Source of the DNA: Catajapyx aquilonaris
Taxonomy: Eukaryota
DNA: 34,420 nucleotides
Direction of reading: 5' to 3'
Assembly: GCA_000934665.2 (NCBI GenBank)
Contig: JYFJ02004142.1
Location: 1-34,420 of the forward strand
Made by a program: the position numbers and the translations under genes. Positions 10,201 through 12,451 of this stretch are shown in pieces. Positions within the stretch are counted from its first letter, which is position 1. Every line of letters begins with the position of its first letter. A model generated the notes under the pieces. The model saw only the letters and a list, made by a program, of their open reading frames with translations. It ran no database searches and had not been told where the DNA came from.

Positions 10201-12451
10201 TTCAGGCTAGTTTTGGATGCTGCACTGTTGATGGCCCATGGCCTTGGTCTGGAAGCCAGGTCCTTTCCTTTTGTACTTTTCTCCAGGGTGTTCTCTGCAA
10301 ATGGACCCATCCTGAAGCGAGCGAGTCCCTGACCTCTCCTGAGAAATGGCTGCTTTATCTTGGTCCCATTGTTATCATCAGAAGCTTCATCACTGTTCTT
10401 TTGAAGCTCTGCCTCAAGCATCTCCTCGAAGCGTTTCTTGCTTGGAGTGATTGGTGTCTCTTCAAAAGACACCTGTGGTAAAGGTGGCAGAGTTTCTTCC
10501 ATGTGACCACTGTCAGGAAAGGAAGGAATCTGCGGTGATATGTCCCCTTTTCCGTCCTGATTTTGGAAGTGTTGCGACTGATAAGTAAAAGGAATTGGAC
10601 AGCCCATGACAAACACTTCTTCCTCTCCACTCTCTGATTCCTGATTGAAGCCATCTCTCAAACCATCTTCCCTGTCACTCATCTCGAACTCCTTGCTGTT
10701 GCGTTCTTCGTCATCATAGTCTGGATGTGAGTTCTCATCCCTTTCCTCATTGGGCTTGCTAAGAGGTGCACCATCTTCCTTTTCTTCTTCACTCTCAGTC
10801 TCGGGTAGTGATTCAATTCCTTCTAAATCAGAGTCAACGTCTTGGGATGTCTCATCCTCTCCATTCGTGACACTTCCTTCGTTGTTCTGACCTGTGAGGA
10901 CAACACAAATTTCATTGCAGTAACTCTGTAACAAATATGCATATTGCTTTCAATATTCATGGTTCACTCTGAAGATGTGCTCTGTCGCACAAGTCCGGTA
11001 AGTGAATCAACCCTTTCACAAACTGAGACACGATTAAGAAACGAAGATGTGATGAGAAACACTGGGTGGTTAGTTTAGTCTTGTAAGACTCCCTTGTCAG
11101 TAAGAAGGTACAGGTAGCCCCTGTTTTACGCCAGTCCACTTTGCCACACTACCTGAAAACTGGGCCAAAAGCTTTCAGCAGAGGGTGAGAGGAAAAACTC
11201 TTTGACCACTCCAGATCTCACAGACGTTCAGCACAACATCAATCCAACACTGGAGCCATTGAACATTGCATGCACACAACTCGGCAATGGACAACATGGG
11301 ATCTTGCTTTTGAGTGTTAAAATAAGTTAGAGCACTACAGCCAGAGCCATGTGTCGTCCACTGCCACAATTCATTTAAGAAAACCATCGCCCTCACTGCG
11401 ATAGTTTAAAATGTTTCTCAGCGAGGGAAAAGTGGTGCCACTTTTGGACCTCAGAGAGATGATGCCAACTTCCTGAGTCCCATGTCTTTCAGAGTCCTAT
11501 ACATAGTGCATACACTCAAAGGCAAGCTCCCATGCAGGAACCTCGGTAATGGACAACATGTCCATTACCGAGGTTCCTGCATAAAACATTCAATGCCTCC
11601 AGCAGTCCCCCTGCTTCTTCCAGCCCAGCCCTGTCATTATGGTAGTCTCCTCTAGATCGGGAATTTAGCGCTGGCACAGCCCCACAAGAATCTATTGGGG
11701 GTCGGTTTGGGAGGACGCCTTCTGAACCAACCCAAACCGTCCTTTCCTCAGAGGGCATTTGCAGACTAGGATTTGGATGGCTGGCAGCGATAGATGGCTG
11801 TGGCGATGTGCCAGCGTCAAAATTTCGGGCTGGTGGAGATTCTGTAATTAAACTACCGTATCGTAGGAGTAACAGGGGCTAGGCTCCAGTGATAGAATGA
11901 TGTTGTGGAGGTCTACCAGCTCTGAAGTGGCCAAAGCACCTACAGTTCCAACCAAGGCAACCACACCATAGCCAAGAATAATCTGCCAGGTGGCGATACT
12001 TGTATTTATCCATTAATTTCCACTGCTATACATCAGCAATCTGAGTTACGTACAAATCCGACTTACACATATCCCTGTTTGTAGACCAGGGACATCCTAT
12101 AATCAAATGATGCCAATGGCACTGATGCTAATAAGTACAATGCCTCACTGTGCTGAAGGCCTAGGCCTTGCCATTTTCCATCCATAAATTTAGCATAACT
12201 CGAGACTGCAATGAATTGAAAACGAGCATAATTCTGGTCACTTGGAAGCCCCCTGACTTGAACTCATATCTCTCCTCACCTCTAGGTGTGGCAAGTAACA
12301 AGAGCTCCGCAAGGCGCCTCTTCTCCTCCTGAAGTTTGGCCTTCTGCTGCATCTGCTCCTCCAGTAGCTTTTGCTCCTGCTCCCTCTGCCACTCCTTCAG
12401 CTCAGCAAACTGCCTCAGCAAATCCTGCAGGGAAGCATCCGCCTCCGCCAT
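7237..12451 (-). CDS. CENPJ: Centromere protein J / SAS-4 / CPAP centriole protein, about 1182 aa with exon 2
   Basis: Exons 12451-12280, 11841-11569 (less certain), 10891-9591, 9348-8479, 8273-7629 and 7524-7237, GT-AG and in frame. Contains KQPFLRRGQGLARF, KEERELAVFEYLEDAAEDSSFCSSSS, a long coiled coil and a C-terminal Gly-rich beta-repeat TCP10/G-box domain (FNGDLKE...YPDGLNVVEFPDGQVE...FPNGS...[39 protein letters not shown]). Confidence 0.92.
9963..10124 (-). repeat. Coding tandem repeat, 6 x 27 nt (9 aa), within CENPJ
   Basis: GSRTSLVRA/SSKSSLVRA/GSKTSLTSA/GSLTSLTRP/SSKAGLTPA/SSKTNLTST. Each DNA unit begins RGTTCA on the minus strand. Confidence 0.85.
11532..11582. repeat. Perfect 24-bp inverted repeat with 3-nt loop
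   Basis: ATGCAGGAACCTCGGTAATGGACA (11532-11555), loop ACA, TGTCCATTACCGAGGTTCCTGCAT (11559-11582). Confidence 0.97.

Follow-up and report, generated by a model that had tools for sequence, protein, structure and literature searches.

The window, the whole 34,420-nt stretch of Catajapyx aquilonaris DNA that was analysed, carries on its minus strand a gene that its sequence identifies as CENPJ/SAS-4. A preliminary description of this DNA had already named the gene CENPJ, and both diagnostic regions were found. Pfam matched the G-box family Tcp10_C (PF07202) at 7237-7617 (E = 1.4e-22) and at 7575-8315 (E = 6.9e-12), and the CPAP tubulin-binding region (PF25779) within 9573-10949 (E = 2.1e-08), all on the minus strand. 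A HMMER full scan with the large, tubulin-binding exon (exon 3) gave four matches at E <= 0.001, among which only P0003 and P0004, both distant, look like SAS-4 relatives; a word-based search of longer proteins with the same peptide gave no match. P0004, an arthropod SAS-4-like protein, aligns through its residues 14-49 to exon 1 (residues 18-53, E = 4e-5) and through its residues 139-215 to the large exon (residues 126-194, E = 3e-12), and the two matches are in collinear order. The features on which the first part of the analysis turns are as follows.

12280-12451, minus strand: CENPJ/SAS-4 exon 1, with its ATG at 12451, the donor GAG/GTGAGG and an end in phase 1
9591-10891, minus strand: CENPJ/SAS-4 large exon (exon 3), with the CPAP tubulin-binding region and a start in phase 1
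11569-11841, minus strand: proposed 273-nt exon (exon 2), frame-neutral, stop-free and phase 1 at both ends, proposed from sequence features only
11532-11582, minus strand: perfect hairpin with a 24-bp stem and a 3-nt loop, its arms complementary at 24/24 positions
11559-11582, minus strand: 5' arm of the hairpin in gene sense, holding the proposed CTCG/GTAATG donor; this is the ancestral arm, which aligns to copy 1 of a repeat, X

Exon 1 ends and the large exon starts in phase 1, so that the two can be joined directly and in frame without the proposed exon. The blocks that match P0004 lie 90 residues apart in that protein, a weak yardstick as a single distant relative, and in the window they are separated by 129 residues without exon 2 and by 220 with it.

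A perfect hairpin in intron 1

The preliminary description placed a perfect 24-bp hairpin with a 3-nt loop over the donor of the proposed exon, and arm pairing and folding both bore this out. The arms of the inverted repeat, 11532-11555 and 11559-11582, are 24 nt each, 100% complementary and separated by 3 nt; along the minus strand the order is 5' arm (11582-11559), loop (11558-11556) and 3' arm (11555-11532). The 5' arm spans the proposed donor, with 14 nt from the end of the proposed exon and 10 nt from the start of the proposed intron, counted from its GT, and the stem can be extended to 28 pairs through U-A and U-G pairs. As a 59-nt RNA the hairpin folds at -47.6 kcal/mol (z = -12.9), a value that none of 200 shuffles equalled, and the same stem dominates a 121-nt context (-66 kcal/mol, z = -9.8). 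The GU of the candidate donor is included in this stable local stem.

A scan of the full window, set to arms no shorter than 12 nt and loops no longer than 15 nt, detected two perfect hairpins, with arms of 27 and 24 nt, compared with longest arms of 8-12 nt in 30 dinucleotide shuffles of the window. We conclude from this difference that the hairpin is not a product of chance and that some process made it. The second perfect hairpin (30219-30283; 27-nt arms, 11-nt loop, -63.7 kcal/mol) is located in apparently non-coding DNA, and its occurrence in the same window points to a general mutational process. Further copies of the arms were not found elsewhere in the window, nor were further copies of the MITE-like insert described below. 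The window also had no Rfam match at gathering scores, and thus no known RNA family, and no ARAGORN tRNA, and thus no tRNA-derived SINE head. We considered a miRNA or mirtron and rejected both, the stem seeming too short for a Microprocessor substrate and the hairpin seeming not to span an intron.

Read-derived contigs bear on whether the inverted arm might be an assembly or library chimera that is absent from the animal's genome, an artefact that the preliminary description had also raised and that we regard as highly improbable. The stretch was found in four DNA-type runs of a single sample, X1-X4, of which X1, X2 and X4 were compared, together with X5. One Logan contig of 5967 nt from each of X1, X2 and X4 contains the inverted arm and matches 11291-11743 with 0 differences; the same contigs match 9300-11232 as well, with 0 differences and 0 gaps. 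Since the k-mer assembly of each run spans the hairpin, the reference assembler is unlikely to be its origin. What favours an artefact is that these runs are all from one sample, possibly the source of the window itself, and that contigs give no local read depth. It is opposed by the contigs of three separate runs, which cross the hairpin without a difference and at the depth of its surroundings (21-30). Contigs from X5, a run of another sample and of a type not given, touch repeat parts only.

A transposon-like insert within the proposed exon

The sequence features reported for the proposed exon are all present: 11841-11569 is free of stops, is preceded by TTACAG and followed by GTAATG, and is in phase 1 at both ends, and a TGA lies at 11516-11518 as described. 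We assessed the open frame against 2,000 dinucleotide shuffles of the 1388-nt interval between exons 1 and 3. The longest open frame of the interval has 120 codons; 172 of the 2,000 shuffles (8.6%) had an open frame of at least this length, and 815 had one of at least 91 codons. Within the observed frame there are 13 AG and 7 GT dinucleotides in phase, so that a phase-compatible "exon" was almost guaranteed once the frame was open.

Judged by sequence, the candidate splice sites appear to fall short in strength of those at the other four junction pairs of the gene. The four other donors (AG/GTGAGG, AG/GTAAGG, AG/GTCAGT and AG/GTCAGT) all have both an A at -2 and a G at +5, neither of which occurs in the candidate CG/GTAATG, and the pyrimidine tract of the candidate acceptor is poorer than those of the gene's four other acceptors. 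Pfam assigned no family to the proposed exon, and a word-based search of longer proteins with its peptide returned nothing at E <= 0.01; its alignment to P0004 reached only E = 0.31, at an unrelated position. Its codon log-odds score is 0.081 bits per codon, with frame 0 the best of the three frames. Windows of true exons have a median of 0.28, and 5 of the 76 score no higher than the candidate; other stop-free stretches have a median of -0.009, and 37 of the 148 score no lower. The candidate falls between the two groups, so that a coding role keeps some probability.

The interval from exon 1 to the tubulin-binding exon is a nest of repeats that includes two inverted copies of repeat X, and most of the proposed exon belongs to an element inserted into one of them.

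11200-11317, plus strand: repeat X copy 1, inverted relative to copy 2 and found by self-comparison; the "empty site" for both insertions
11512-11936, minus strand: repeat X copy 2 (11512-11534, 11559-11602 and 11882-11936), now in three parts, between which lie the hairpin insertion and the 279-nt element
11603-11881, no strand assigned: 279-nt MITE-like insert, absent from repeat X copy 1 and containing the proposed acceptor
11882-11889, minus strand: upstream copy of the target-site duplication, CTGGAGCC, located by the alignment of copy 1 with copy 2
11595-11602, minus strand: downstream copy of the target-site duplication, CTGGAGGC, 7/8 identical and inside the proposed exon
11709-11870, no strand assigned: high-copy core of the repeat, placed by the loose ends of contigs, with approximate boundaries
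11536-11558, minus strand: 23 nt absent from copy 1, comprising the loop and most of the 3' arm

Of the proposed exon's 273 nt, 239 (88%) belong to the insert, and the other 34 nt, together with the "donor", lie within the older, dispersed repeat X. We aligned copy 1 (11195-11325, plus strand) globally with copy 2 (minus strand), which left two gaps in copy 1. The first gap, of 287 nt, equals the 279-nt element plus one copy of the 8-nt direct repeat, and copy 1 has a single CTGGAGCC at the corresponding site. A gap of this size with an 8-nt direct repeat is the signature of a transposon insertion with target-site duplication, for which copy 1 is the empty site. Internally, the insert has inverted repeats (11646-11695 against 11790-11839, 72% identity) that can be followed as a long, decayed pairing at 63% identity (11576-11695 against 11790-11911). 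Its terminal inverted repeats are weak, with 8 of the first 12 aligned columns identical, and its G+C content is 53%.

Summed contig depth was 697-1112 in the bins of 11631-11852, compared with 21-30 on the flanks, so that the candidate acceptor, with the 5' half of the "exon", belongs to a high-copy repeat. Depth was also raised over 11964-12074 (318-680). Run X1 alone placed 158 contigs on the stretch, 96 of them at 90-95% identity, and the loose ends of contigs cluster at about 11709-11724 and at 11870. We tentatively class the insert as hAT-like. Like hAT-like MITEs, it is short (279 nt), non-coding and present in high copy number, with an 8-nt target-site duplication (7/8), an empty site and internal inverted repeats; its terminal repeats are weak, and its termini, TAGCC and CAGTC, fit the hAT motif incompletely.

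These observations bear directly on the claim of the preliminary description that 11841-11569 is a real exon whose donor is controlled by a structural splicing switch. The exon was not confirmed, because 239 of its 273 nt are transposon-like, its open frame is not significant, its splice sites are weak and it has no homology. The switch is likewise unsupported, given an exon that is 88% MITE-like insert, has a weak donor and no homology, and is dispensable for the frame. On sequence grounds, use of 11841-11569 as an exon appears unsupported; most probably, the 273-nt "exon" is an open frame that runs by chance through transposon and repeat, and splicing makes no use of the GTAATG in the stem.

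A modified form of the switch, in which the MITE and the adjoining repeat would make up a young alternative exon of SAS-4, and the hairpin would mask its donor and cause skipping unless the stem was opened, seems to us very unlikely. In its favour, the open frame is compatible in phase and is bounded by AG and GT, and frame 0 scores best by codon use. The stem would bury the entire putative U1 site at -47.6 kcal/mol, and donor stems lower exon use in SMN2 exon 7 (PMC1802598) and tau exon 10 (PMC2604894). Both of its splice sites and 88% of its length, however, are repeat-derived, the weak donor and the missing homology count against it, and 8.6% of shuffles had a frame this long by chance. Moreover, a weak donor under a perfect 24-bp stem would be expected to be silenced fully and not tuned. 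Within intron 1, the hairpin itself precedes the next acceptor by 678 nt, and, with the exon unsupported, we see no reason to expect it to have any effect.

Repeat X and the origin of the 3' arm

The second gap in copy 1 concerns the hairpin. The two copies of repeat X align in three segments, as follows.

11512-11534 against 11317-11295: copy 2 against copy 1, 91% identity
11559-11602 against 11293-11250: copy 2 against copy 1, 77% identity
11882-11936 against 11257-11200: copy 2 against copy 1, 76% identity

Between the first two segments, a gap of 23 columns, its placement ambiguous by a few nt, removes from copy 1 the loop and most of the 3' arm (11536-11558). Copy 1 retains the equivalent of the 5' arm, with GCAATG in the place of the GTAATG of copy 2. 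The terminal CAT of the 3' arm (11534-11532) has a counterpart in copy 1 and so pre-existed; the ATG and CAT triplets, which form the outer three pairs of the stem, are both found there. The equivalent stretch of copy 1 is unfolded (-12 kcal/mol, z = +0.84). The structure is thus not conserved in copy 1, the sole related sequence compared, which has neither the 3' arm nor the fold. In the read-derived contigs we also observed a variant of copy 1 that carries an internal, microhomology-flanked deletion of 58 nt.

The 23-nt gap in copy 1 indicates that the 3' arm is a young, templated, inverted insertion. The inserted sequence is the exact reverse complement of the sequence beside it (24/24) across a 3-nt spacer. 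Between copy 1 and the 5' arm there are 5 differences in 24 positions, and the two copies diverge by about 9-24% in their flanks, whereas the two arms have 0 differences in 24, which places the copying of the 3' arm long after the copies of X diverged. The copying also followed the MITE insertion, which had had time to acquire the mismatch in its target-site duplication. The absence of the arm from the paralogue makes the stem new, and any regulation through it would have to be very recent, a further point against a splicing switch.

The comparison is with a paralogue (about 77-91% identity) and not with an orthologue, so a deletion of the arm from copy 1 is formally possible. Repeat X might then have been two-armed originally, with the arms of copy 2 kept perfect by selection or homogenisation and copy 1 having lost one through a hairpin-mediated deletion. 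Palindromes are deletion-prone, and deletions do occur at this locus, as the 58-nt variant within copy 1 illustrates. This history nonetheless has to reconcile arms that differ at 0 of 24 positions with flanks that differ at about 9-24%, and the 3' arm of copy 2 mirrors the 5' arm at all five positions where copy 1 differs, as fits copying after divergence. We therefore judge an ancestral, maintained hairpin quite improbable.

We favour instead the reading that a recent mutation left the hairpin in intron 1 of CENPJ/SAS-4 as a scar of no shown function; to this reading we assign a probability of roughly 0.7. A recent template-switch inversion without function, which the preliminary description had offered as its alternative, is the best explanation of the locus and is backed by the empty-site paralogue. 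In the history that we propose, the 279-nt MITE-like transposon would first have split copy 2 of repeat X, leaving the 8-nt target-site duplication. Much later, about 23 nt would have been added in copy 2, consisting of the exact reverse complement of the 21 nt just upstream and a turn of 2-3 nt. The nascent strand may have switched template during replication; by another route, a broken 3' end may have snapped back and primed synthesis, in the manner of SD-MMEJ or polymerase theta. The strand would then have returned at a pre-existing 3-nt microhomology (ATG ... CAT), which would have lengthened the stem to 24 bp. The ATG/CAT microhomology of the return point, with ATG opening the 5' arm and CAT preceding GGGA, is present in copy 2 and also in copy 1, and at 3 nt it is short enough to have arisen by chance. 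A single templated event would account for the 3' arm, although simple copying explains neither the 3-nt loop nor one mismatch at the point of return. P-nucleotides left by transposon excision were considered as another origin and rejected, since 21-24 nt is far above the size of such footprints. The hairpin is probably an ordinary neutral mutation.

Significance and comparison with known systems

The hairpin is an ordinary finding, though a well-resolved one. Its value lies in offering a well-resolved case of the single-step birth of a perfect hairpin, in which a paralogue within the same window tells the old arm from the new. It also cautions that open, phase-compatible "exons" within introns can be transposons.

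A bolder reading, which we consider very doubtful, would have the MITE in intron 1 of SAS-4 exonised as a frame-neutral cassette of 91 amino acids, with a later template-switch hairpin gating or silencing its donor, in a genome that is perhaps hairpin-prone. If true, a core centriole gene would have gained, very recently and in two steps, an alternative exon under structural control; were SAS-4 mRNA to contain the spliced transposon segment, an exon gated by structure would have been caught at its birth in this locus. The window contains two perfect hairpins with arms of at least 24 bp in 34 kb, and an unusually high rate of perfect hairpins, if true, would mean that splice-site-masking structures are seeded genome-wide.

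Among known systems, template-switch mutations come close. Template switching can make perfect stems in a single event, as described in two studies (PMC8794818; PMC5453318). In these accounts (Loytynoja and Goldman 2017, PMC5453318; Monttinen and Loytynoja 2022, PMC8794818), as at the present locus, a reverse-complement copy lies beside its source, a perfect stem with a short loop forms in one event, and a comparison sequence is without the copy. Unlike in those cases, the comparison sequence here is an intragenomic paralogue and not an orthologue or a reconstructed ancestor. The change here is also a net insertion of about 23 nt, in place of a length-neutral replacement, and the exact location of its four switch points is ambiguous.

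Among templated insertions of the snap-back or polymerase theta type, a germline insertion of 23 nt counts as a long one. In Drosophila, snap-back synthesis makes the inserted sequence part of new, longer inverted repeats, according to one report (PMC5728401); polymerase theta is the subject of another (PMC4912351). The present insertion shares with such insertions a short junction microhomology and an arthropod host. Unlike those cases, it is known from sequence, without a break site or repair context.

The stems at tau (MAPT) exon 10 and SMN2 exon 7 are short and imperfect, are located on validated, conserved exons and have effects that were shown by mutation. The present hairpin resembles those of tau exon 10 (PMC2604894) and of TSL2 of SMN2 exon 7 (PMC1802598) in being an RNA stem with a GU donor motif inside it. 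It is unlike them in being a perfect 24-bp stem that the paralogous copy lacks, placed on a transposon-derived open frame that is at most a candidate exon. By analogy with these systems, the MITE segment, if ever spliced in, should be suppressed by a perfect 24-bp stem over a weak donor.

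Perfect hairpins and palindromes

Besides the perfect hairpin with 24-nt arms in intron 1 of SAS-4, the minus-strand CENPJ/SAS-4 gene, the window contains two further inverted structures:

30219-30283: second perfect hairpin, 27-nt arms, 11-nt loop
23568-23700: inverted repeat of 43 nt, 88% complementary, 47-nt spacer

The 30219-30283 hairpin, which lies in apparently non-coding DNA, folds at -63.7 kcal/mol (z = -15), and no paralogue of it was found within the window. The occurrence of two such perfect hairpins within 34 kb, this one and that of SAS-4 intron 1, suggests that a genome-wide process lies behind them. 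The 23568-23700 inverted repeat is another MITE-like palindrome.

Repeats and probable allelic differences at SAS-4

In X1, X2 and X4, three DNA-type sequencing runs of one sample, the contigs assembled from the reads all lack a 58-nt stretch of the window (11233-11290). The stretch falls within repeat copy 1, the inverted paralogous copy of the older repeat around the intronic hairpin, and is bordered by a 7-nt direct repeat, ACAACAT (11233-11239 and 11291-11297). This difference is probably a microhomology-mediated indel, heterozygous or haplotype-specific. Another high-copy repeat occupies 11964-12074 of the same SAS-4 intron (core at about 11985-12023), with a contig depth of 318-680 versus 21-30. 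Around the SAS-4 start codon (12436-12564), the contigs contain two alleles, one of which (depth about 7-8.5) has four substitutions and, at 12482, a deletion of 1 nt. The pattern appears to reflect heterozygosity in the 5′ UTR or promoter.

Genes flanking SAS-4

Two further genes were located:

2540-3352 (+): mitochondrial ribosomal protein mL44, with an RM44 endonuclease domain (E = 9e-51)
12993-14445 (+): gene divergent from SAS-4

The mL44 gene is encoded on the strand opposite to SAS-4 and sits downstream of it. The divergent gene, whose start is some 500 nt away from the ATG of SAS-4, has a serine/threonine-rich, acidic open frame; its Cgr1-like match is weak and below threshold (E = 1.9e-4). 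The two genes may share a bidirectional promoter region.
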